DNA of 64,000 bases from contig JBBACQ010000001.1 in assembly GCA_041656935.1 (NCBI GenBank), forward strand, positions 29,459 to 93,458, written 5' to 3'. Made by a program: the position numbers and the translations under genes. Source of the stretch: Patescibacteria group bacterium (GTDB lineage: Bacteria > Patescibacteriota > Patescibacteriia > Patescibacteriales > UBA12465). The notes under the pieces were generated by a model, which saw only the letters and a list, made by a program, of their open reading frames with translations, had not been told where the DNA came from and did no database searches. Positions 21,201 to 38,310 of this stretch are shown here, piece by piece. Position 1 is the first letter of the stretch, and each line of letters begins with the position of its first letter.

Positions 21201-21214
21201 ATAGAAAGGTTAAA

Positions 21215-21786
21215 ATACGACGAACGAGCGTCGCAGTTTTTGACGAAAAAATTTCCTAAAATTTAGATCTCAAGAGTAAAAGCTTAAATTTTGGAGAAAG
21301 TTTGAGGAAAAAACGAGAAGCGAAGTGAGTCGTATTGAAAATACGACGAACGAGCATCGCAGTTTTTGACGAAAAAATTTCCTAAAATTTATTTTAGACC
21401 AAAGAGTAAAAGCTTAAATTTTGGAGAAAGTTTGAGGAAAAAACGAGAAGCGAAGTGAGTCGTATTAAAAATACGACGAACGAGCATCGCAGTTTTTGAC
21501 GAAAAAATTTCCTAAAATTTATTTTAGACCAAAGAGTAAAAGCTTAAATTTTGGAGAAAGTTTGAGGAAAAAACGAGAAGCGAAGTGAGTCGTATTAAAA
21601 ATACGACGAACGAGCATCGCAGTTTTTGACGAAAAAATTTCCCAAAATTTATTTTAGACCAAAGAGTAAAAGCTTAAATTTTGGAGAAAGTTTGAGGAAA
21701 AAACGAGAAGCGAAGTGAGTCGTATTGAAAATACGACGAACGAGCATCGCAGTTTTTGACGAAAAAATTTCCCAAAATTTAAGCTT
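21215..21786. repeat. Tandem repeat array, about 130-bp unit x 4.4 copies
   Basis: Unit starts (ATACGACGAA) lie at 21215, 21341, 21471, 21601 and 21731, giving periods of 126, 130, 130 and 130. Units 2-4 are near-identical. Each junction is the palindrome GTCGTATT-N4-AATACGAC. No ORF is present. Confidence 0.95.
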
Positions 21787-22800
21787 TTACATAGTGCGCA
21801 TTTGATTGGTGGCCTGTAAATCCAAAATAGTTTTCTTTAAACCATTTTCTAAAGTAACTACTGGCATCCAATCTAAATCATTCCGAATCTTATAAGTATC
21901 AGGGATATTTAATTGAGTCATAAAAATCTTATTAGGTTGAAAAACTATTTTCGATTTAGAAGAACTTAATTCAATAACTTTTTGGGCGACATCATAAAGT
22001 TTGATATCCTCTTCTGAACCAACATTAAAGGGGCCAGAAAAATCTGATCTAATAACTTTAACGGCCGCATCAATAACATCATCAACATAACAAAGAGAAG
22101 ACGAAAAATTCTCATCACCAAAAATAACGATATCTTCATTATTCAAAGCACTATTAATAAAATCTGGCAACATCTGATCATCTTTCAAGGCCATTCTAGG
22201 TCCATAAGTTCTAAATAATCGGATAATTTTAGCATCTATATTAAAAACCTGGCGATAATTACTAACTAAGGTTTCAGCAAAACGCTTTCCCTCATCATAG
22301 CAACTTCTTTCATTTAAAAAATCAACTTCTCCATTATAATCCTCTTTAGTTTTTAAATTTGGCGACGATTCCTTTCTTAAGCCATAAACCACTGAAGAAG
22401 AAAATTGCAAAAATTTAGACTTATATTTAACGGCTATGTCTAAGGCATTTTTTACCACATAAGAATTAGCTAAAAGAATCTTTTCTTTATTATCAATAAA
22501 ACTTCGCGCCGACATTGGACAGGCTAAATTATAAATCTCCTGGATGCCCTGAAAAGAAATTTTAAATTTATTTAACTCTACCAATTCCTCTAAATCTAAA
22601 GGAGAGCTTAAATCATGATTAATAAAAACAAAATTAGGATTTGATAATAAATGATCGATATTTTTGTGATTGCTACTAGAAAAATTATCAATACAAATAA
22701 CCTTATTTTCTTTAATAAGTTCATCACATAAATTAGAACCGATAAAACCAGCTCCTCCAATTACTAAAATGTTTTTTTTATCAAAAATTACTGGAGACAT
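21787..22800 (-). CDS. NAD-dependent epimerase/dehydratase, UDP-glucuronate decarboxylase (UXS)-like
   Basis: GGAGFIGSNL Rossmann motif and YDEGKRFAETL (YxxxK context typical of UXS). Confidence 0.82.
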   Translation of the reverse strand: MSPVIFDKKNILVIGGAGFIGSNLCDELIKENKVICIDNFSSSNHKNIDHLLSNPNFVFINHDLSSPLDLEELVELNKFKISFQGIQEIYNLACPMSARSFIDNKEKILLANSYVVKNALDIAVKYKSKFLQFSSSVVYGLRKESSPNLKTKEDYNGEVDFLNERSCYDEGKRFAETLVSNYRQVFNIDAKIIRLFRTYGPRMALKDDQMLPDFINSALNNEDIVIFGDENFSSSLCYVDDVIDAAVKVIRSDFSGPFNVGSEEDIKLYDVAQKVIELSSSKSKIVFQPNKIFMTQLNIPDTYKIRNDLDWMPVVTLENGLKKTILDLQATNQMRTM

Positions 22801-31195: not shown

Positions 31196-32143
31196 TTAAA
31201 ATTTTCGTTGTCTGGTTCGGTTTTCTAGATATCTCTCAATGGCTTCTTTGGAGGTTAACCAATCCCGGCCCTCTTTATACGCCTCCAGCTTTCCTTGTCT
31301 GGCAAGTAAATTAAGATATTTGGCAGAAAAAGGAGCGGTTTTAGCTATTTCCGCAAGCCTCAAAAATTTTTCCTGTTTTTGTGTTGACGGAGTTAATGTC
31401 TTTAGATAAATATCCAATGAACGCTCGATGGACTGAGCAATAAATTTTACCAGTGGTTCAAACTTACCCTTATCCGATTTATCCAAAACATCATAATATT
31501 TTTTTCGGTCAGTTTTCATGATCGTGACCAATGGATATCCAGCTTGCATCAAAAATAGATTCATCGTTAAGCGTGCCGTTCTACCATTGCCGTCAAAAAA
31601 CGGATGAATATAGACTAATTTATGATGCAATAAAGCAGAAAGTTCAATAATATTCAGTTTGTTTTTTTGTGAGTTTAACCAAATAATTAATTCTCTCATT
31701 TTATTTGGTACTTGTAGCGCATTTGGTGGAATATGGTCTGCGCCACCAATAATTACATTAGCATTTCTATATCGGCCGGCCCATTCCTTATCCGTTTCCT
31801 GCAAAATAATTTGATGTAAGTTTTTAATAAGCATTTCGGAAACAGTGTGTTTTTTGTCTTTATCTATTAAGTCATACAAATATTCTAGTGCGGCATGGTG
31901 GTCTTTCGCTTCCAAATGGTCTTTCAAAGGCTTACCTTTCACTGTCAGGCCTTCATTAATAACTAAAAAGGTCTCTTTTAAAGTTAAAGAGTTGCCTTCA
32001 ATAGCATTTGAGTTATAGGTCATTTCAATTTGGAATTTTTCTCGAAGTTTTTGCACTGCAGACTTAGGTAAGGGGCGCAGTTTGTTGAGTTTGGACAGTT
32101 TTTCTTCCAAACGATTTTTTACGATTGATGATAAGTAAGTCAT
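31196..32143 (-). CDS. fic: Fic family protein (class II, autoinhibited) with C-terminal HTH-like domain
   Basis: Canonical Fic motif HPFFDGNGRTARL. N-terminal inhibitory motif S-N-A-I-E-G ([S/T]xxxE[G/N]). The C-terminus (AKYLNLLARQGKLEAYKEGRDWL) looks like a DNA-binding fold. Confidence 0.9.
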   Translation of the reverse strand: MTYLSSIVKNRLEEKLSKLNKLRPLPKSAVQKLREKFQIEMTYNSNAIEGNSLTLKETFLVINEGLTVKGKPLKDHLEAKDHHAALEYLYDLIDKDKKHTVSEMLIKNLHQIILQETDKEWAGRYRNANVIIGGADHIPPNALQVPNKMRELIIWLNSQKNKLNIIELSALLHHKLVYIHPFFDGNGRTARLTMNLFLMQAGYPLVTIMKTDRKKYYDVLDKSDKGKFEPLVKFIAQSIERSLDIYLKTLTPSTQKQEKFLRLAEIAKTAPFSAKYLNLLARQGKLEAYKEGRDWLTSKEAIERYLENRTRQRKF

Positions 32144-32204: not shown

Positions 32205-32295
32205 GACTGTATATTCAGCTTAGTTTTTGAATAATTCAATGCTTCAAGCGCCGTTTGATCTCTTGCCAGATTAAACAATTTTTTACTCACGCTCA

Positions 32296-32378
32296 GATCA
32301 ACGTTTGCGTATATCTGATGTGCGAAGCATGTGGGCGGAATGACCGCAGGGAGTGGAGCCAGATATACGCTGTTAGGC
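32296..32378 (-). other. attC-like recombination site C (3' end of cassette C)
   Basis: The minus strand reads GCCTAAC-a-GCGTATATCTGG...loop...CAGATATACGC-aaac-GTTGATC. It begins 10 nt after the stop codon of the 264-aa ORF. Confidence 0.65.
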
Positions 32379-32404
32379 GATGTAAATTTTAGACTTTTTT
32401 AAAT
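32372..32404. repeat. Terminal inverted repeat of cassette C, distal arm
   Basis: GTTAGGCGATGTAAATTTTAGACTTTTTTAAAT matches the reverse complement of 33190-33222 at 31 of 33 positions. It overlaps the last 5 codons and the stop of the ORF. Confidence 0.85.
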
Positions 32405-33183
32405 CTCGCGACAAATTCATCTCTTGTCATCACAACTTGTCTTACTTCCGGCTTCTCTCCCGTTGTTAGATATTTTTCCAGAGATCTCTTGTTGTATTGC
32501 AATGCTAAATGTTGAACGGCGGTAACGTCACTATCTTCAGGTGAAATGTCCTGTATTGAAATTTCATCACCCAATAGCATTCTAGCTTTCGCCTCCATTT
32601 TTTGATTAAGTAACCAAGATTTCATAACAATTTTATCTGCTGTGATTTCACCCGCTTCTAATTTAGCCCCTATGGACTGAAAGCCATCTATGATTTTAGA
32701 AATTAGTTCTGCGCTTTCCACGCCCGTTGGCCTGATGTGTAATGAAATTTCATTATTGTTGTCTTTTTTATATGCGATAACATCATTGACATGCACCATG
32801 CCAGACCCTTCTTCCACCTCATCTCTTTTTCTATTCCATTCAGTGAGTAATAGATTGGCGATCGGTGAAGTAGCTAATCTGTCGGCAAAGCTATCTCTGG
32901 AAAAATTATTTTCTTGACATTCCTGTAAAGAGGAATTAATTATTTGATACAATTCTTGTTTTGCTTTGGACTGTTGAGTTTCTTCGCTGGAGCCACTTAA
33001 TCTAGAAACGTAAAGATCAACCATTCTTTCTGTAATTGCATTCGTATCTTCAGCACCTTCGGTATGGAGTAAATTTTGATATAGTTCAAATCCACCAACA
33101 AATCTAATAAACGCAGGATTTGTTAAGATCATATCCCTTGTTCCTTCTTGATGAATTTGTCGCGATTGTTCACCTTCTATCAT
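32389..33183 (-). CDS. Hypothetical protein (cassette C ORF)
   Basis: 264 aa with no recognisable motif. By eye it is richer in G+C and poorer in Lys/Asn/Ile than its neighbours. Confidence 0.6.
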   Translation of the reverse strand: MIEGEQSRQIHQEGTRDMILTNPAFIRFVGGFELYQNLLHTEGAEDTNAITERMVDLYVSRLSGSSEETQQSKAKQELYQIINSSLQECQENNFSRDSFADRLATSPIANLLLTEWNRKRDEVEEGSGMVHVNDVIAYKKDNNNEISLHIRPTGVESAELISKIIDGFQSIGAKLEAGEITADKIVMKSWLLNQKMEAKARMLLGDEISIQDISPEDSDVTAVQHLALQYNKRSLEKYLTTGEKPEVRQVVMTRDEFVARFKKV

Positions 33184-33189
33184 ATTGGT

Positions 33190-33222
33190 ATTTAAAAAAG
33201 TCTAAAATTTATTTCGCCTAAC
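33190..33222. repeat. Terminal inverted repeat of cassette C, proximal arm
   Basis: ATTTAAAAAAGTCTAAAATTTATTTCGCCTAAC, the partner of 32372-32404. It ends 6 nt upstream of the ORF ATG. Confidence 0.85.
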
Positions 33223-33367
33223 ATCGGGCTTAAGGGAAGTTTGATTTTTTCAGAGCTGGAACGCAGATTTTTTGAGGCAACCCACAAAAAATCAAGTGAC
33301 CTCGAAAAAATCAAATTTGGGTCGGAGAAACCTGCAAGGTTTCGGAGCCCTTTAAGCCCTGTTCTAT
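33216..33367 (-). other. attC-like recombination site B (3' end of cassette B)
   Basis: The minus strand reads ATAGAAC-a-GGGCTTAAAGGG...about 110-nt structured loop...CCCTTAAGCCC-gat-GTTAGGC. There is one extra A in the 5' arm. The loop contains nested TTTGATTTTTTC/GAAAAAATCAAA and GATTTTTTG/CAAAAAATC pairings. Confidence 0.65.
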
Positions 33368-33516
33368 TCGTCCGTTAGGACTTGATTTTTAGTGCAACGA
33401 TGCCGAAGGCAAAAAATCAAAGTAATTTCAGGGGCGTATTCAATCAAGCGAACACAGTGAGCCATCAAGAATAAGTATCAAGGGGCAATTTTCAGTCCGT
33501 CGTAGGGGGAATTCCG
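33361..33516. repeat. Terminal inverted repeat of cassette B, distal arm (with inserted hairpins)
   Basis: Its blocks GTTCTATTC, GTAATTTCAGGGG, GGGGCAATTTTC and GGGGGAATTC are the complement of blocks in 34106-34175, in the same order. Confidence 0.7.
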
Positions 33517-33557
33517 TTTATTTTTTGCTTTTTTTTCTCTAAAAAAGAAGATTTGTT

Positions 33558-34049
33558 TTAAATTTCTATTTGAAATATTGCAATAATTAACATAAGAACA
33601 CATGTCAAGGCAAGCGTATAATAATAAAGCCAAGATTGTTTTTTATTATACAGATAATAAATAATTCCAAGAGTCAACATTGTAATTATTATTCCAGCAA
33701 TCCAAGGTGTTTGATATAAAAATAGACCTATTGTAATGAACAAGGTCATTAATGGAACTGTCATAAAAGTTGACTTGTAAATATCCTTTAATTTTAATCG
33801 AAAGAAAAAATAAGAGATTGCCATAATAATAACAAGAAATGAAATATGTAACAATGGTGGAAGCCAGAATAATTGCGAATCAGGATTAAAAGGCATAAAT
33901 AACCCAATAATCCTTCGAATTGTATTTTGATAAAGAGCATCAAAAAGGAATGTTAGAATTAGCAAAATATATCCGAAAACCGCTATGGCTAAAGCTGATA
34001 AAAAACCTTTAATCAAAGGATTCCTAAAAAAGTGCTTTAATTTTCTCAT
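33558..34049 (-). CDS. Hypothetical polytopic membrane protein (cassette B ORF)
   Basis: 163 aa with 4-5 predicted TM helices. No family recognised. Confidence 0.6.
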   Translation of the reverse strand: MRKLKHFFRNPLIKGFLSALAIAVFGYILLILTFLFDALYQNTIRRIIGLFMPFNPDSQLFWLPPLLHISFLVIIMAISYFFFRLKLKDIYKSTFMTVPLMTLFITIGLFLYQTPWIAGIIITMLTLGIIYYLYNKKQSWLYYYTLALTCVLMLIIAIFQIEI

Positions 34050-34105
34050 ATATTGAATGGTTTAGTATAAATAATTTCCTATCTATATTTTTTATTATAT
34101 TTTGA

Positions 34106-34175
34106 ATTCTCCCCAGTCGTTTTTGTTTTTAGAAAATTGCCCCCGTCGTTAGCCCCTGAAATTATTGAATAGAAC
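34106..34175. repeat. Terminal inverted repeat of cassette B, proximal arm
   Basis: GAATTCTCCCC...GAAAATTGCCCC...CCCCTGAAATTATTGAATAGAAC, the partner of 33361-33516. Confidence 0.7.
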
Positions 34176-34270
34176 GTTTCGGCATATCTGATGTTTGCCG
34201 TAGCGTAGCGGAGGCAAATATGGGTGGAGGCTTTTGTATAAAAGCCGTAACCAGATATGCCGTGTTATGT
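34169..34270 (-). other. attC-like recombination site A (3' end of cassette A)
   Basis: The minus strand reads ACATAAC-ac-GGCATATCTGG...loop with TTTGCC/GGCAAA and GGCTTTT/AAAAGCC sub-hairpins...CAGATATGCC-gaaac-GTTCTAT. Confidence 0.65.
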
Positions 34271-34385
34271 GATGTGCATGTTTTACTTTAATCCCGATAG
34301 CAATCGGGATTGCTCTAAAAAAGAATTTTAATTTTGTTTTTTTGTTTTGAAAAAATGAAAGAGGGGTTAGGGGTGAATTTCATTT
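34262..34385. repeat. Terminal inverted repeat of cassette A, distal arm (about 120 nt)
   Basis: GTTATGTGATGTGCATGTTTTACTTT, then a hairpin, then CTCTAAAAAAGAATTTTAATTTTGTTTTTT and AAAGAGGGGTTAGGGGTG. These match the reverse complement of 37265-37390 block by block. The internal hairpin is replaced by a different hairpin of similar form. Confidence 0.8.
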
Positions 34386-34411
34386 TTTCAAAACTCCTTA
34401 TTTTTTAATGA

Positions 34412-34849
34412 TTATCTATCAGCATCCTTTGCTGCTTTTTCGATCCAGTTTCCCATATTATTATATCCGTCATCATTATTCCATAAATAAAAATCATATC
34501 CGCTTGGGATTCTTCCACATCTTTCAGAAGTATTGCCTTGGAGATCTTTTATTTTGCTTACATCTATTCCTAAAAGTCCATTTCCTATTTCTTTGCTTTT
34601 TTCTATTTCATATTTTACCCACCTGCTGCTACAAGTTTTTTCTCCCACAAGCACAACCGTAACAGATGTTCCTTTTAATTGATTATCAATCCAATTTTTA
34701 ATTGCTTGATCACCTTGTTTTTTTATCTTTTCAAAATCAGCTGCGTCTATAAAGCCCGCAGCTTCTTTTCCTTGTGTTACCCAGCTGTTTCTAACGACCA
34801 TAGCTCGAGAGACATCTTTATATTTGAAACTAAAAAATACTTTTCTCAT
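34412..34849 (-). CDS. TIR-like domain protein (DUF1863 / ThsB-like)
   Basis: 145 aa. The N-terminal KVFFSFKYKDV strand, VVLVGEKTCSSRWVKYEIEKS (SxWVxxEI) and GNGLLGIDVSKIKD match the MTH538/DUF1863 TIR-like pattern as I know it. Confidence 0.78.
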   Translation of the reverse strand: MRKVFFSFKYKDVSRAMVVRNSWVTQGKEAAGFIDAADFEKIKKQGDQAIKNWIDNQLKGTSVTVVLVGEKTCSSRWVKYEIEKSKEIGNGLLGIDVSKIKDLQGNTSERCGRIPSGYDFYLWNNDDGYNNMGNWIEKAAKDADR

Positions 34850-34859
34850 AATTTTAAAT

Positions 34860-35264
34860 TTAATTTATTAAATATATTATAAATAGGGCGGCACTGATTA
34901 AAGGTAAATAAAAAATTAAAAGAGTTGGTGAAAACATAGAGTAGATTTGAGTATTTTTCTTTAATTTTTTATATTCTTCTACATCCATAGAAAAATCTAT
35001 TTCTTCCTCTTTTAGTTTTCTAACATGATTATATAAATCTCTAAACAATCTTTCTTGCGAAAGAAAGTATCCGTCCAAAATCCAAAAAACCAAGGTAATA
35101 ACTATAAGAAAATAAATGACATAATCAGAATTATTTGCCTTTGAAAACAAAGCAAGAAGTGCGCCAATCAAAGTAATAGTCCATCCTCTTAGAAAAAACA
35201 AATTTCCAGCCATTCGGCTAATTATATTTTGTATAAATTCAAGATGTTTGCGTTTATTTTCCAT
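34860..35264 (-). CDS. Small multi-TM protein, candidate membrane effector partner of the TIR-like protein
   Basis: 134 aa. Two adjacent TM helices (WTITLIGALLALF and VIYFLIVITLVFWILDGYF), a charged helix (ERLFRDLYNHVRKLKEEE) and a C-terminal TM. A 10-nt gap separates it from the TIR-like gene. Confidence 0.6.
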   Translation of the reverse strand: MENKRKHLEFIQNIISRMAGNLFFLRGWTITLIGALLALFSKANNSDYVIYFLIVITLVFWILDGYFLSQERLFRDLYNHVRKLKEEEIDFSMDVEEYKKLKKNTQIYSMFSPTLLIFYLPLISAALFIIYLIN

Positions 35265-35267
35265 AGT

Positions 35268-36245
35268 TTATTTTAAATCAGCCATTATTTTTTTTGCTAA
35301 ATGATGAGCAAAATTTACAGCAACAGCATTTCCGATCATTTTATATCCGTCAGCGATATCACGATATTTGAAAATAAAATCATCAGGGAATGTTTGAATC
35401 CTTGCACATTCACGAACAGACAAGCGACGATATAAATGTTCTTTTCCGGGAACAAAAATTCTTTTATTTTGACTGATGAATTTCATTTTCGGAGCTTGCG
35501 GATGAATTGGGGCGTGGCGACCACCAGCTTGAATAGTAAAAGAAGGTTCATCCCATGAGCGGACACGATTTCGTGACATATAAATTGAAGAAAAACCGCC
35601 ATTCATGTATTCGTGATTTGGAATTTTTAACATATCACCATTTGTTTTATTTTTATCTAACGCAGGTTTTGCTAAACGCAAATCATAAATAGCGTCTTTT
35701 AATACGGGTTTATATTTTTGCGGTTCTGGAAATTCAAATTTTTTCTTTAGTTTTTTATTATATCCCACAATAATGACACGCAATCTATCTTCAGGAACAT
35801 CATAATCATTTGCATTCAATAATTTGCAAGAAATATTATATCCAGCATTTTCAAATTCCTTTATTATATTTTCAAAAGCTTCCTTATGTTTTGGATGAAG
35901 GATTCCCGACACATTTTCTGCAAGAAAAAATTTAGGTTGTTTTTCTTTTAACAAACGAATATAATCATAAAATAATTTTCCTCGCTTGTCATTTATCCCA
36001 CGCCCAGCTCCAGCTTCACTCCAACTTTGGCAAGGTGGTCCGCCAATAATTCCGTCAACATCAGGAATTTCAGAAGCGGGAACATCAACAATACTTCTTT
36101 TATCAAGTTTTGTTTTTGGAAAATTATGTTCAAAAGTTTCCCAAATTGTGGGGTCATATTCATTTGCCCAGACGACATGAAAACCAGCTTTTTCAAAGCC
36201 TAGATCAAGTCCTCCTGCACCTGTAAACAATGAAGCTATTTTCAT
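35268..36245 (-). CDS. DNA (cytosine-5)-methyltransferase, M.HaeIII-like (probably GGCC-specific)
   Basis: C5-MTase motifs are FTGAGGLDLGF (I), GGPPCQSWS (IV), ENV (VI) and GNAV (X). The variable region (ALDKNKTNG, PNHEY, MSRNRVR, EHLYRRLSVRECARIQ) is collinear with M.HaeIII as I recall that sequence. Confidence 0.92.
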   Translation of the reverse strand: MKIASLFTGAGGLDLGFEKAGFHVVWANEYDPTIWETFEHNFPKTKLDKRSIVDVPASEIPDVDGIIGGPPCQSWSEAGAGRGINDKRGKLFYDYIRLLKEKQPKFFLAENVSGILHPKHKEAFENIIKEFENAGYNISCKLLNANDYDVPEDRLRVIIVGYNKKLKKKFEFPEPQKYKPVLKDAIYDLRLAKPALDKNKTNGDMLKIPNHEYMNGGFSSIYMSRNRVRSWDEPSFTIQAGGRHAPIHPQAPKMKFISQNKRIFVPGKEHLYRRLSVRECARIQTFPDDFIFKYRDIADGYKMIGNAVAVNFAHHLAKKIMADLK

Positions 36246-36247
36246 AA

Positions 36248-37228
36248 TTATTCGTGACTAATATTTAGTGTATTTTTAAATAATTTTTTCGGCGATTTCA
36301 AAAGGTTTATATCAAATTTCAATGACGATTCAACCCTTGAACTTGCATTATGAATACGAAAAGAAAGAGTCCAATCATTATTCATGGTTACTATCGCAGT
36401 TGTTTGGCTATCGGTTTTGAAACAAATATCAATAATTTCTGTTGGTAGTGGTACTTTGGGGGTTTTATATTTCGGAAGAATGTCGTCAAAAGGCAAATTT
36501 AATGTTCCATTCAAATTGTAGGCGTGTATTTCTACACTATTTTTGCCTTTAATAACTTTGTAAAAATCTTTATTTCCAACGAGGTATGCGACTAAATTGG
36601 ACGCTACTTTTTTAGAATCTTTTTTATATAGATTTTTCAGTTCTTTAATAAAGGCTTTTAAAATTGGAATGTAGATTGATGAATGATAATCACCAAGCTC
36701 ACTCCACTTTTTCTTTGCACCACTTTCTTTTCTAATTTTTTCCAAATTGTTAAAAATAGGTGTAACTGTTTCAAAATATTCTTTTGATGTTTTTATTCCA
36801 AGCCACTTTTCGCCAAAATCAATATTTGAAGATAGTCGGGAATGTTTTACTGCATGATGATTATTTTTTGCAGATACTCCAATTTCCCATTTTTGCAATA
36901 AACGAATTGCTAAAACGTCTCTGACATCGCCTGATTTTCCATGTTGATCTGATAAAATTTCAAGTTGCAGAATATCATCTTTGCCAATATCGTTTGTGAG
37001 GCGTGGCTCTATATCCATTAAAAAATTAACCGCAAAACTAGCGGTGAGCAAATAATCGCTCTTTTCTGTTTCGCTAACATTTTCAAAACAACCTTTTGCA
37101 ATTTCAAAAGAAGAATTTTTGATAACTTCAAGATTTGTTTTGTCTTTCAATTTTTCTTCAAATTGAACAAGCAAAGCATACTCAAAAGATTTTCCAGTTG
37201 TCATTTGTCTTGATGCAGTAGTAGTCAT
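36248..37228 (-). CDS. Putative type II restriction endonuclease cognate to the M.HaeIII-like methylase
   Basis: 326 aa, co-oriented, with a 2-nt gap to the methylase gene. The assignment rests on context and size, and no catalytic motif was identified with confidence. Confidence 0.6.
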   Translation of the reverse strand: MTTTASRQMTTGKSFEYALLVQFEEKLKDKTNLEVIKNSSFEIAKGCFENVSETEKSDYLLTASFAVNFLMDIEPRLTNDIGKDDILQLEILSDQHGKSGDVRDVLAIRLLQKWEIGVSAKNNHHAVKHSRLSSNIDFGEKWLGIKTSKEYFETVTPIFNNLEKIRKESGAKKKWSELGDYHSSIYIPILKAFIKELKNLYKKDSKKVASNLVAYLVGNKDFYKVIKGKNSVEIHAYNLNGTLNLPFDDILPKYKTPKVPLPTEIIDICFKTDSQTTAIVTMNNDWTLSFRIHNASSRVESSLKFDINLLKSPKKLFKNTLNISHE

Positions 37229-37264
37229 ATTTTTATTATTACATTTTTCCCCTTATAAATAAAT

Positions 37265-37390
37265 CGTTTTCGTAGCGGAGCGGAGAAAACACCTTATACC
37301 CCCTTTTAATAAATAAAAAACAAAATTCAAATTCTTTTTTAAAGCTGGGCGATAGCCCAAAAGTAAAACATGCATTTCACATAACTGGTT
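37265..37390. repeat. Terminal inverted repeat of cassette A, proximal arm
   Basis: Partner of 34262-34385. It starts at the attI crossover (ACATAAC, 37379-37385). Confidence 0.8.
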
Positions 37391-37500
37391 ATTATACGAA
37401 CAATACTTAAAAAATACATTAATTTAAGCATTGTTTATTTAAGATATGCTATAATAATCAAAGTTAAAACTATTAATATTTTAATATAATTCAAATAAAT
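37379..37500 (-). other. attI-like region with crossover site GTTATGT
   Basis: Minus-strand GTTATGT (37385-37379) forms the first G|TT junction. A TATAAT (37396-37391, minus) lies 5 nt upstream of it and points into the cassettes. The motif ATTTAAG occurs twice (37422-37428 and 37436-37442). Confidence 0.5.
37447..37455 (+). promoter_or_regulatory. Extended -10 element for the recombinase gene
   Basis: TGcTATAAT lies about 45 nt upstream of the ATG at 37501. No good -35 is present. Confidence 0.4.
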
Positions 37501-38310
37501 ATGCAAACTCAATTAAATCTCCTTGAAAGAGAGTTAAAAATTAGAAATTATAGCCCTAAAACCATTAAGGCCTATCTTTATGGTTTAAAAGAGTATCTAA
37601 TATTTAAAAAGGTAAATTTAGATAATTTTGATGAAAATATCATTAAGAATTTTCTTTTAACTTCTCGAATCAAAGCTTCTCCTCAAAGCCAAAATATATA
37701 TCTCGGAGGGATAAAATTTTATTATTACAATATCATTAAAATTAATAAAAAAATAGACATAAAATCAATCAAAAAGACCAAAAAGCTCCCCGTTGTTCTA
37801 TCTCGCCAAGAAATTAAAGAAATATTAAATTCAATTTCAAATGAAAAACATAAATTATTAATAGCAGTATCTTATGGAGCTGGATTAAGAGTAAGTGAAG
37901 CTATTTCTCTGAAAGTCAAAGATATTGATCTAGAGGAGCTGACTATACACATTAAAAACGCTAAGGGGCAAAAAGATCGCATCAGCGTATTACCAGAAAA
38001 ATTAATAAAAAATTTAGAAAAAATAATTAAATTTAAATCTTTAAATGAATATGTTTTTGAGAGTGAGAGAGGCGGGAAATTAACCTCTCGAACTGCTCAA
38101 AAAATTTTTGAAAATAACTTAAAAAAGGCCAAAATAAAAAAAGACGCCACCTTCCATAGCTTACGTCATAGCTTTGCCACTCATCTATTAGAAAACGGCG
38201 TTGATGTTCGTTATGTTCAAGAATTACTTGGTCACCAAAATATCAGAACAACACAAATTTATACTCAAGTCACTAATCCTAAATTAAAAAACATTAAAAG
38301 CCCCTTATAA
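37501..38310 (+). CDS. IntI-like tyrosine recombinase lacking the integron-integrase-specific insertion
   Basis: 269 aa. Catalytic residues are R (GLRVSE), K (KGQKDR), HxxR (HSLRHSF), H (LLGHQN) and Y (IYTQV). It has a SAM-like N-domain (IRNYSPKTIKAY). The blocks KLPVVLSRQEI...GLRVSEAISLKVKDID...KGQKDRISVLPEKL and the C-terminal ..IKSPL are collinear with IntI1 as recalled. Confidence 0.88.
   Translation: MQTQLNLLERELKIRNYSPKTIKAYLYGLKEYLIFKKVNLDNFDENIIKNFLLTSRIKASPQSQNIYLGGIKFYYYNIIKINKKIDIKSIKKTKKLPVVLSRQEIKEILNSISNEKHKLLIAVSYGAGLRVSEAISLKVKDIDLEELTIHIKNAKGQKDRISVLPEKLIKNLEKIIKFKSLNEYVFESERGGKLTSRTAQKIFENNLKKAKIKKDATFHSLRHSFATHLLENGVDVRYVQELLGHQNIRTTQIYTQVTNPKLKNIKSPL

Follow-up and report, generated by a model that had tools for sequence, protein, structure and literature searches.

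In classical integrons, the integrase carries an additional domain, I2, whose job is to hold extrahelical bases, to choose the strand, and to block a second exchange, and textbooks and software alike define an integron integrase by this domain. Escudero et al. (2016; PMC4792948) explain I2 as making room for the extrahelical bases and thereby preventing the second strand exchange. Integration of CTXphi by XerCD also proceeds from a folded single strand, with exchange of one strand pair (PMC4792948). Among the Xer-related simple recombinases, the relevant passages of Smyshlyaev et al. (2021; PMC8138268) mention a subgroup from candidate phyla, “Cand”, where they treat class-specific recombinases that possibly stand in for Xer. 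Here we consider a stretch of 64,000 nucleotides from a Patescibacteria group bacterium (contig JBBACQ010000001.1, positions 29,459 to 93,458 of the forward strand; hereafter the window), which encodes a tyrosine recombinase of 269 residues that resembles the integron integrase IntI and lacks the I2 region. It is quite likely that this recombinase serves a chromosomal integron as its integrase, the integron being of a type specific to the Candidate Phyla Radiation (CPR). The anatomy and orientation of the locus, covariation within its sites, a bias in which strand of those sites folds better, and reshuffling of cassettes at AAC| in close relatives, all computed here, carry this reading.

The protein has the complete tyrosine-recombinase catalytic set that the initial annotation had ascribed to its open reading frame (ORF). 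A Pfam search returned PF00589 at 149 bits together with PF13495, the SAM_4 N-terminal domain, and R130, K155, H219, R222, H245, and Y254 are invariant in an alignment of 30 family members. The AlphaFold2 model has a confident Xer/IntI-like fold (predicted local distance difference test score, pLDDT, 87.6); its top fold match in the PDB by Foldseek is VchIntIA (2a3v; E 1.6e-16), with XerA next, and VchIntIA is also the best PDB match by sequence, at 142.2 bits. In BLASTP, IntI1 (WP_000845048, taken from plasmid pNDM-BTR) aligns with residues 5-269 at 141 bits (E 1e-44, 30% identity). The IntI1 blocks RLPVVLTPDEVVRIL, GMRISEGLQLRVKDLD, KGSKDRALMLPESL, and VRSPL pair in this alignment with the blocks that had been named as collinear at first reading, all of which are genuine.

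The region that is missing from the protein coincides with I2. From KGQKDR to HSLRHSF there are 58 residues in the query versus 100 in IntI1, with 48 gap positions there, precisely the short spacing that had been estimated at first reading. VchIntIA matches in two stretches, residues 7-177 of the query corresponding to 7-182 and residues 196-269 to 244-317, such that 18 residues (178-195) replace 61 residues (183-243) of VchIntIA. In a multiple alignment, an insertion of ~42 columns occurs in IntI1 only, and not in the window protein, its CPR homologues, or XerC/D. The AlphaFold2 model contains only short strands at residues 177-195, where the block has pLDDT values of 90-92. Thus, the alignments with VchIntIA and IntI1 and the multiple alignment agree that a region of ~45 residues is absent, and the IntI-specific extra domain is indeed missing, as proposed. 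Scoring against TIGR02249, as had been suggested, gave 213.2 bits, under the cutoff of 265, in a match split into two stretches, the first of which ends at profile position 179 of 315; PRK15417 gave 131 bits, under its cutoff of 435. By the current protein definition, then, this is not an IntI, as the defining domain is absent and neither cutoff is reached.

The protein is also not uniquely like IntI. The blocks that had been read as IntI-type are indeed collinear with IntI1, but archaeal XerA is about equally similar. The top NCBIfam match is NF040815 (XerA_Arch) at 215.2 bits, marginally under its cutoff of 220, and the XerA structure 5hxy scores 138.8 bits against 142.2 for VchIntIA. Because the XerA scores about match the IntI scores, the blocks are better described as IntI/XerA-type; the C-terminal ..KSPL tail aligns with IntI alone. 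The bacterial Xer proteins score lower, at 180.6 bits for the NCBIfam XerC model (cutoff 335) and 178.3 for the XerD model (cutoff 330). XerC gives 102 bits in tblastn, and E. coli XerD gives 95.9 bits over residues 87-265 only, which is the catalytic domain. The possibility that collinearity with IntI1 would prove no better than with XerC/D can be set aside, the comparison being 141 bits over the full length with 96 for XerD. Judged by such comparison of scores, the 269-residue protein appears to be as near archaeal XerA as IntI and clearly further from XerC/D.

One relative does have extra sequence at the relevant place. P0139 (Candidatus Peregrinibacteria, 324 residues; L086:1339-2313) has an insertion of ~45 residues exactly where the IntI-specific domain sits, which it has in common with one full-length close relative, P0272 (326 residues), and the partial P0273; its other neighbors are short. 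We considered P0139 as a bridge to canonical IntI and dropped the idea: the insertion is rare and nested among short forms, and the attC at L086:121-265 is the same bulge-type site as elsewhere in the CPR. Homology of this insertion to I2 is uncertain. Because P0139 and P0272 are nested among short forms and have the same site type, they leave it undecided whether the short form is ancestral or reduced.

The genes left of the recombinase gene are all on the minus strand, and the recombinase gene is transcribed rightwards. Between them lies an attI-like core, in which crossover would fall at the AAC at 37383-37385, followed leftwards by three units that each comprise one or more ORFs and an attC-like imperfect palindrome (Table 1). 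A covariance model of the palindromes, built from 23 sites, finds these three sites in the 64-kb window, all on the plus strand and upstream of the gene, and no other match at E<=1. The first and third sites were in the training set and the second, which has a longer inner region, was outside it; the DNA fold of the first has z = -6.1. A pattern-scan match at 36550-36646, inside the endonuclease gene of the first cassette, was rejected as a chance match that the covariance model does not confirm. A scan of the whole window with Rfam returned no family at gathering score, and the attC-like sites are therefore not a known RNA family. Each cassette opens with TTRRRY..., which pairs with the outer end of its own palindrome and not with that of its neighbor. 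The start of cassette 1, GTTATGTGAAAT..., and the stretch beside its attC-like site, GTTATGTGATGT..., are inverted repeats of ~90 nucleotides (nt); the start of cassette 2, GTTCTATTCAAT..., is complementary to the flank of its own attC2; and a 37-nt inverted repeat, 92% complementary, links the start of cassette 3 with the flank of attC3. The array has no more sites past attC3, where a Fic/DOC-HTH gene and a gene for a methyltransferase follow.

Table 1. Coordinates of the recombinase gene, attI-like core, cassettes, and attC-like sites, numbered from the first letter of the window
Feature	Position	Strand	Basis or remark
Recombinase gene, I2-less IntI-like tyrosine recombinase, 269 residues	37501..38310	+	ORF, profile matches, IntI1 alignment
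Candidate promoter of recombinase gene, extended -10-like TGcTATAAT	37447..37455	+	~45 nt 5' of ATG, read from sequence
attI-like core, ATTTCACATAAC TGG TTATTATACGAAC	37374..37401		115 nt 5' of ATG
Cassette 1, 3.2 kb, four genes, ends in attC1	34175..37384	-	Pfam matches
Cassette 1: conserved leader	37229-37384	-	Kept in other loci with different cargo
Cassette 1: HaeIII-type endonuclease	36248-37228	-	Pfam
Cassette 1: C5 cytosine methyltransferase	35268-36245	-	Pfam
Cassette 1: small 8xMP-like membrane protein	34860-35264	-	Cassette content
Cassette 1: ThsB-like TIR protein	34412-34849	-	Cassette content
Cassette 1: inverted partial leader copy	34271-34411		Beside attC1
attC-like site 1, ATAGAAC-GTTT-CGGCATATCTG...CAGATATGCCG-T-GTTATGT	34161..34278	+	Covariance model 96.1 bits, E 7.5e-20
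Cassette 2, predicted 163-residue membrane protein (33558-34049), ends in attC2	33222..34174	-	ORF; protein without Pfam match
attC-like site 2, longer inner region	33208..33375	+	Covariance model 44.2 bits, E 8.9e-8
Cassette 3, 264-residue protein (32389-33183), ends in attC3	32302..33221	-	ORF; protein without Pfam match
attC-like site 3, last of array	32288..32386	+	Covariance model 69.1 bits, E 1.4e-13

The same arrangement recurs across the family. More than 6,800 proteins match at E<=1e-20, nearly all of ~270 residues; at the stricter limit of E<=1e-30, the family has 2,361 clusters at 50% identity. We fetched 80 genomic loci of homologues (989 kb) and scanned both strands with the covariance model at E<=0.01. 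The integrase-sense strand carries all 89 matches, of which 88 are upstream of the gene and 66 were outside the training set. Where at least 1 kb of upstream sequence is available, 37 of 44 loci have a site, with spacing typical of cassettes, and locus L078 has ten. A simpler pattern scan gives the same picture. At 9/11 stem matches it was too noisy because the DNA is AT-rich (102 forward versus 42 reverse matches upstream); tightened to 10/11, it found 57 forward and 11 reverse matches upstream, and 7 forward and 6 reverse downstream in twice the DNA. An attI-like core, RYYYAAC-TSG-TT(A/T)TTATRCGAA, is present in 72 of 81 loci, mostly 79-140 nt 5' of the ATG. In 75 of 83 cassettes, the body has its longest ORF on the strand opposite to that of the integrase; the median body is 786 bp. 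Assembly breaks follow the same boundary: of 80 loci, 25 have a contig end no more than 350 nt upstream of the gene and only 2 have one as close downstream, and several contigs start 1-5 nt from the AAC of the attI-like core. A variable or repeated region beginning just upstream of the gene would give such breaks. The prospect that homologues elsewhere might never be linked to attC-like arrays is thus not borne out. Taken together, in the window as in the loci, an attI-like site stands beside the integrase gene, the cassette array runs one way, and each cassette ends in an attC-like site.

In the integrase sense, the consensus of the sites is TATTTC-RYATAAC-GTTY-SSGNNTATSNG-AAGT ... GAAC-stem'-T-GTTRRRY-GATGTAAA. 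The RYYYAAC/GTTRRRY R''/R' boxes and the paired L''/L' boxes by which attC sites are classically recognized are both present. From the alignment of 23 sites, RNAalifold derives a structure with one outer stem and a pair of inner hairpins, with compensatory changes in 18 of 26 pairs, including pairs of the inner hairpins, which had no part in selecting the sites. In the alignment of 89 sites, 94.3% of the cells are paired versus 73.5% in shuffles, and none of 500 shuffles reaches 94.3%; these pairing percentages are inflated, as the pattern scan selected on L-stem pairing and the model was used to fit the 89-site alignment. Covariation scores 0.488 versus 0.139 in the control, and sliding the partners by 1-3 columns leaves 36-44% of the cells paired.

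The two strands of a site are not equivalent. G.T pairs are located on the integrase-sense strand, which is the more stable of the two in 50 of 53 sites (mean -25.0 versus -22.4 kcal/mol with DNA parameters, p = 1.3e-9). Seen from the cassette genes, it is the bottom strand, the one that is recombined in classical integrons. In constrained folds, the modal structure runs from an R helix of 4 bp through a one-sided 2-3 nt bulge and an uninterrupted 10-11 bp helix to a multiloop; it is found in ~46 of 82 sites, 41 of 82 being in the four commonest classes, and a few sites have a 1-nt bulge. The bulge, GTTY, adjoins AAC/GTT, and the L stem only exceptionally has single extrahelical bases. The two-sided unpaired central spacer and the L-stem extrahelical bases of the classical attC are not found in the modal fold of these 82 sites. 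The initial annotation had predicted that an enzyme without the IntI-specific domain would recognize site and strand differently, and the folds support this: the L stem is usually without extrahelical bases, and the asymmetry lies in the one-sided bulge.

Sequence is conserved in the sites as well as structure. The L arm, TAT..G-A(A/T)G, is similar to the attI arm TTATACGAAC, and the inner part is a three-way junction with a conserved A(T/A)TTGGG motif. Because the arms carry conserved sequence, recognition is probably in part sequence-specific. In the circular form of a cassette, pairing would run past the R boxes, the start GTTRRRY-GAAATA... facing the flank GTTRRRY-GATGTA..., with a fixed two-base difference (T.T/G.T mismatch, GATGT opposite GAAAT) followed by a further 10-90 nt of complementarity. 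At 30 of 58 junctions, the cognate pair scores higher than the 95th percentile for pairs that are not cognate. In the window and the loci, the two R-box halves of a chromosomal site mismatch each other, and each fits its own cassette.

Direct signs that cassettes move are seen in close relatives. P0047, which is 69% identical to the window protein, is encoded as an identical protein on eight contigs from related samples. These contigs share the downstream flank (a murD-like gene, a mur ligase, ribosomal protein L19, a pseudouridine synthase, and ftsH), and upstream they vary. Cassette A (1026 bp, 99.9% identical) holds the first position in L088 and L094 but the second in L091; cassette B, for a PALP enzyme, leads the array in L089-L093 and comes second in L088; and the first cassette of L087 is the second of L089. 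All junctions fall at ...RYYYAAC|, followed by either the attI arm (TCGTTTTTATACGATG) or the inner part of the attC of the proximal cassette. Exact junctions at AAC| are the signature of integron recombination at the conserved triplet. P0139 is likewise found on two contigs with differing upstream genes. As a separate observation, in L087, a contig that carries the P0047 integrase, two attC-like sites (672-888 and 2750-2861) and their cassette genes are reversed, which suggests that part of this array is inverted.

These features suggest the following picture. The attI-like site lies ~115 nt upstream of the integrase gene, with three cassettes stacked leftwards on the opposite strand, and a cassette has its leader at the promoter-proximal end, then between one and four genes, and finally the attC-like imperfect palindrome. 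From their linkage, the 269-residue protein probably acts as the catalyst on the adjacent sites. Strand exchange would take place at the conserved AAC/GTT, attI x attC giving insertion and attC x attC giving excision; exchange there would account for each cassette carrying its own TTRRRY... start complementary to the outer end of its own attC. As in classical integrons, the attC most likely reacts as a folded single strand, the integrase-sense (bottom) strand, and a single-strand exchange with replicative resolution would follow. In keeping with the lack of an I2 helix to hold extrahelical bases, the sites differ: I2 is absent here, and the classical extrahelical bases are likewise absent from most sites. 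The choice of strand and site would instead fall to the bulge, to the mismatches, and to sequence-specific contacts with the arms.

Several observations weigh against this account. The pairing percentages are inflated, as noted. The genome of the window is a single contig, and cassette turnover is seen only in relatives, which are 69% and 50% identical. The products of recombination would be identical if double-stranded half-sites were exchanged. The family is wide-ranging and unusually conserved, with 66-86% identity across Falkow-, Portnoy-, Gottesman-, Pace-, Gracilibacteria and others (P0002-P0120), which would also suit a housekeeping role; this exceeds what one would expect of an accessory recombinase and may reflect strong constraint, a platform that spreads horizontally, or a housekeeping role in addition. 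Finally, a functional integrase without the additional domain contradicts expectation: in the passage of PMC9668308 that cites their work, Messier and Roy (2001) found the domain to be necessary for IntI activity.

The housekeeping possibility can be put in its strongest form by supposing that the protein is the single Xer dimer resolvase of these CPR bacteria, that the adjacent site is dif, and that the cassettes resemble integrative mobile elements exploiting Xer (IMEX), with the integron-like array as a by-product, or that the protein has a dual role. The XerA family is its top NCBIfam match and falls just short of the cutoff (215.2 versus 220), XerA structures come a close second in sequence and fold, the family is very large and highly conserved across the CPR, its chromosomal position in relatives is fixed, and the window holds no second tyrosine recombinase gene. 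The “Cand” recombinases, possibly substituting for Xer in the passages of Smyshlyaev et al. (2021; PMC8138268) cited above, and the use by Xer enzymes of a folded hairpin without extrahelical bases in CTXphi (PMC4792948) point in the same direction. Yet GC skew is negative across the whole window, and in 14 of the 17 loci that are informative its sign does not change from one side to the other; without a skew switch at the locus, we rejected the attI-like site as dif. Moreover, the cassette-side arm differs with each cassette, only AAC and a short GAAAT motif being kept, and dif sites are not known to vary in this way. Ordered, co-oriented units of ~0.8 kb, each an ORF plus a hairpin, are integron cassettes and not the phage- or island-sized units of IMEX. 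A Xer/dif system therefore seems quite improbable, as does a second, housekeeping role for the protein at a dif elsewhere in the genome.

A different question is whether an integron-type integrase might act here on double-stranded half-sites by classical two-strand exchange, with no folded strand. The 5' half of the attC, ATTTC-RYYYAAC-GTTY-..TAT..GAAG, does resemble attI, ATTTC-RYYYAAC-TSG-TTATTATACGAAC, and the enzyme is without the domain that in IntI blocks the second exchange (PMC4792948); as said, the same products are expected. Against this, the sequences of the L stem and inner hairpins vary between sites and are complementary within each, G.T pairs gather on the one strand that folds better in 50 of 53 sites, the asymmetric bulge is fixed on one side only, and the cassette ends lengthen the stem by 10-90 nt. 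Because of this covariation, strand bias, one-sided bulge, and extended stem, a site that is never folded is hard to reconcile with the data, and we regard exchange of duplex half-sites as unlikely. It is extremely improbable, in turn, that the adjacency is incidental and that decayed attC clusters (attC sites grouped together without an integron integrase, CALIN) or other repeats happen to lie beside an unrelated Xer-like or phage-type integrase or invertase. Inverted repeats do flank the cassettes, L087 has two sites in the opposite orientation, and of the 33 loci in which the upstream sequence exceeds 2.5 kb, 5 have no site; but 88 of 89 sites are upstream and 89 of 89 share one orientation relative to the gene, the attI-like core keeps a fixed distance from the gene in 72 of 81 loci, assembly breaks cluster on the upstream side only, and exact swaps of cassettes at AAC| occur beside an identical integrase. 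An invertase or shufflon was also rejected, as the orientation of sites and ORFs is uniform and each cassette's repeats form the two halves of its own extended attC stem. By its architecture and its inferred mechanism, the locus reads as an integron, of a CPR type and with an I2-less integrase.

Further features of the window concern the expression and content of the array. The candidate -10 element upstream of the recombinase gene may be its promoter, and the alignment of the upstream regions of related loci keeps ATGCTATAATA there. Cassette 1 is a four-gene defense unit, and 3.2 kb is unusually large for one cassette. It begins with a conserved non-coding leader of ~150 nt, which some other cassettes, with cargo that is unrelated, also have at their 5' end and which comprises, in order, GTTRRRYGAAATACATGTTTTACTTTT, the GGGCTATCGCCC hairpin, ..GGGGTATAAGGTG, the TTTTCTCCGCTCCGCTACGAAAAC hairpin, and AAGGGG, which resembles a ribosome-binding site. 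Copies occur at L069:4345-4509 (95% identical to the window copy), L047:7030-7200, and L015:7910-8080 and in L048, L006, L037, and L046; the leader has no Rfam match. It could be a cassette-borne promoter or an element of the 5' untranslated region. Fic/DOC genes are common integron cassette cargo. The Fic/DOC-plus-HTH gene that adjoins the last attC-like site (31196-32143) has no attC after it and may be either a fixed former cassette or simply the boundary of the array. Elsewhere in the window, and unrelated to the integron, a 130-nt unit is repeated in tandem 4.4 times (97% identical) at 21212-21781 in an intergenic region, with a further degenerate copy to ~21911; the array overlaps the start of the ORF at 21787-22800.

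Some members of the family depart from the common pattern in taxonomy or architecture. L067 (JADHVH010000026.1), from a metagenome-assembled genome labeled Candidatus Pacearchaeota, a DPANN archaeon, has this integrase and two attC-like sites, and L001, L005, L015, L022, and L040 are among loci with labels such as uncultured Gammaproteobacteria or Bdellovibrionales. Either these bins or labels are wrong or the system extends past the CPR, which bears on reports of archaeal integrons. In the cultured Bacteroidota strain Persicobacter sp. JZB09 (L082; CP012852.1, 476711-477529), a short homologue with 40% identity has the ..IKSPL tail, lacks the I2 insertion, and scores 234.5 bits, above the NF040815 cutoff. 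Some relatives have an insertion of ~35 residues in the N-terminal domain (L049:10001-10912; P0130, P0131, and P0144), and many distant ones (P0161-P0266, 41-47% identity) have N-terminal extensions of 90-320 residues.

Beyond the window, we think it likely, with somewhat more reserve than for the single locus, that the CPR contains a large and seemingly undescribed lineage of functional integrons with an I2-less integrase and attC sites that mostly lack the classical extrahelical bases. In open-access papers and bioRxiv preprints we found no description of CPR integrons or of an I2-less IntI. If this is true, capture of hairpin cassettes is possible without the domain that now defines integron integrases, and the “chicken-and-egg” problem of the co-evolution of I2 and attC (Escudero et al., 2016) gains a living intermediate or a reduced derivative. 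A widespread system that apparently manages without the domain would mean that there is another way to do what the domain does, and the step from Xer to integron would gain a candidate that is open to experiment. Surveys that demand the IntI-specific domain would call such arrays integrase-less clusters. The IntegronFinder 2.0 survey covered RefSeq complete genomes (PMC9024848). Ghaly et al. (PMC9668308) reported attC arrays in 75 archaeal genomes and only six IntIs, with a detector that requires the domain, and the same may apply to those archaeal arrays without IntI. The finding would extend integrons into a large, poorly studied part of bacterial diversity. As the cassettes carry a restriction-modification pair and a ThsB-like TIR protein, shuffling of defense genes may matter for these small-genome, probably episymbiotic bacteria. 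Finally, a compact enzyme with a partly sequence-defined hairpin site could serve as a recombination tool.

How, then, does the CPR system compare with those already described? With classical integrons (IntI1, and VchIntIA of the Vibrio cholerae superintegron) it shares a divergently transcribed integrase with an adjacent attI, co-oriented cassettes of an ORF plus a palindrome, RYYYAAC/GTTRRRY boxes, exchange at the AAC/GTT triplet with a hybrid R' box, a bottom strand that folds better, reordering of cassettes in populations, and defense genes as cargo. The proteins align over their full length and have in common the SAM_4 domain and the ..SPL tail, and VchIntIA is the best fold match. In contrast to the classical enzymes, the CPR integrase is without I2 and falls below the TIGR02249 and PRK15417 cutoffs. 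The sites differ as well: where the classical attC has a two-sided unpaired spacer, the CPR attC has a one-sided bulge of 2-3 nt; its L helix is usually uninterrupted and without single extrahelical bases; and it adds conserved arm and inner motifs, a three-way junction, and a stem that continues past the R boxes.

In size (~270-290 residues) and in lacking the I2 insertion, the protein is like archaeal XerA (PDB 4a8e and 5hxy) and the single-Xer systems XerS/difSL and XerH/difH. Its sequence and profile similarity to XerA is equal to that to IntI, and its site lies beside the gene as in XerS/difSL, where the difSL site reportedly adjoins xerS. Unlike those systems, the CPR locus lies off a GC-skew switch, and its site borders a variable cassette array; unlike XerA itself, the protein scores under the NF040815 cutoff and has a KSPL tail that aligns only with IntI. 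The “Cand” recombinases of Smyshlyaev et al. (2021; PMC8138268), Xer-related and simple and likewise from candidate phyla, as far as the relevant passages describe them, are probably the same family as the window protein, and those passages make no mention of a link to attC-like cassette arrays. The closest mechanistic precedent for the reaction that we propose would be the integration of CTXphi by XerCD and of other IMEX, in which, by analogy, an I2-less Xer-like enzyme would use a hairpin that mimics a duplex without extrahelical bases. The CPR system differs from this precedent in that its recombinase is dedicated and linked in cis to attI, its mobile units are small promoter-proximal cassettes in an ordered array, and its hairpins keep a fixed asymmetric bulge.

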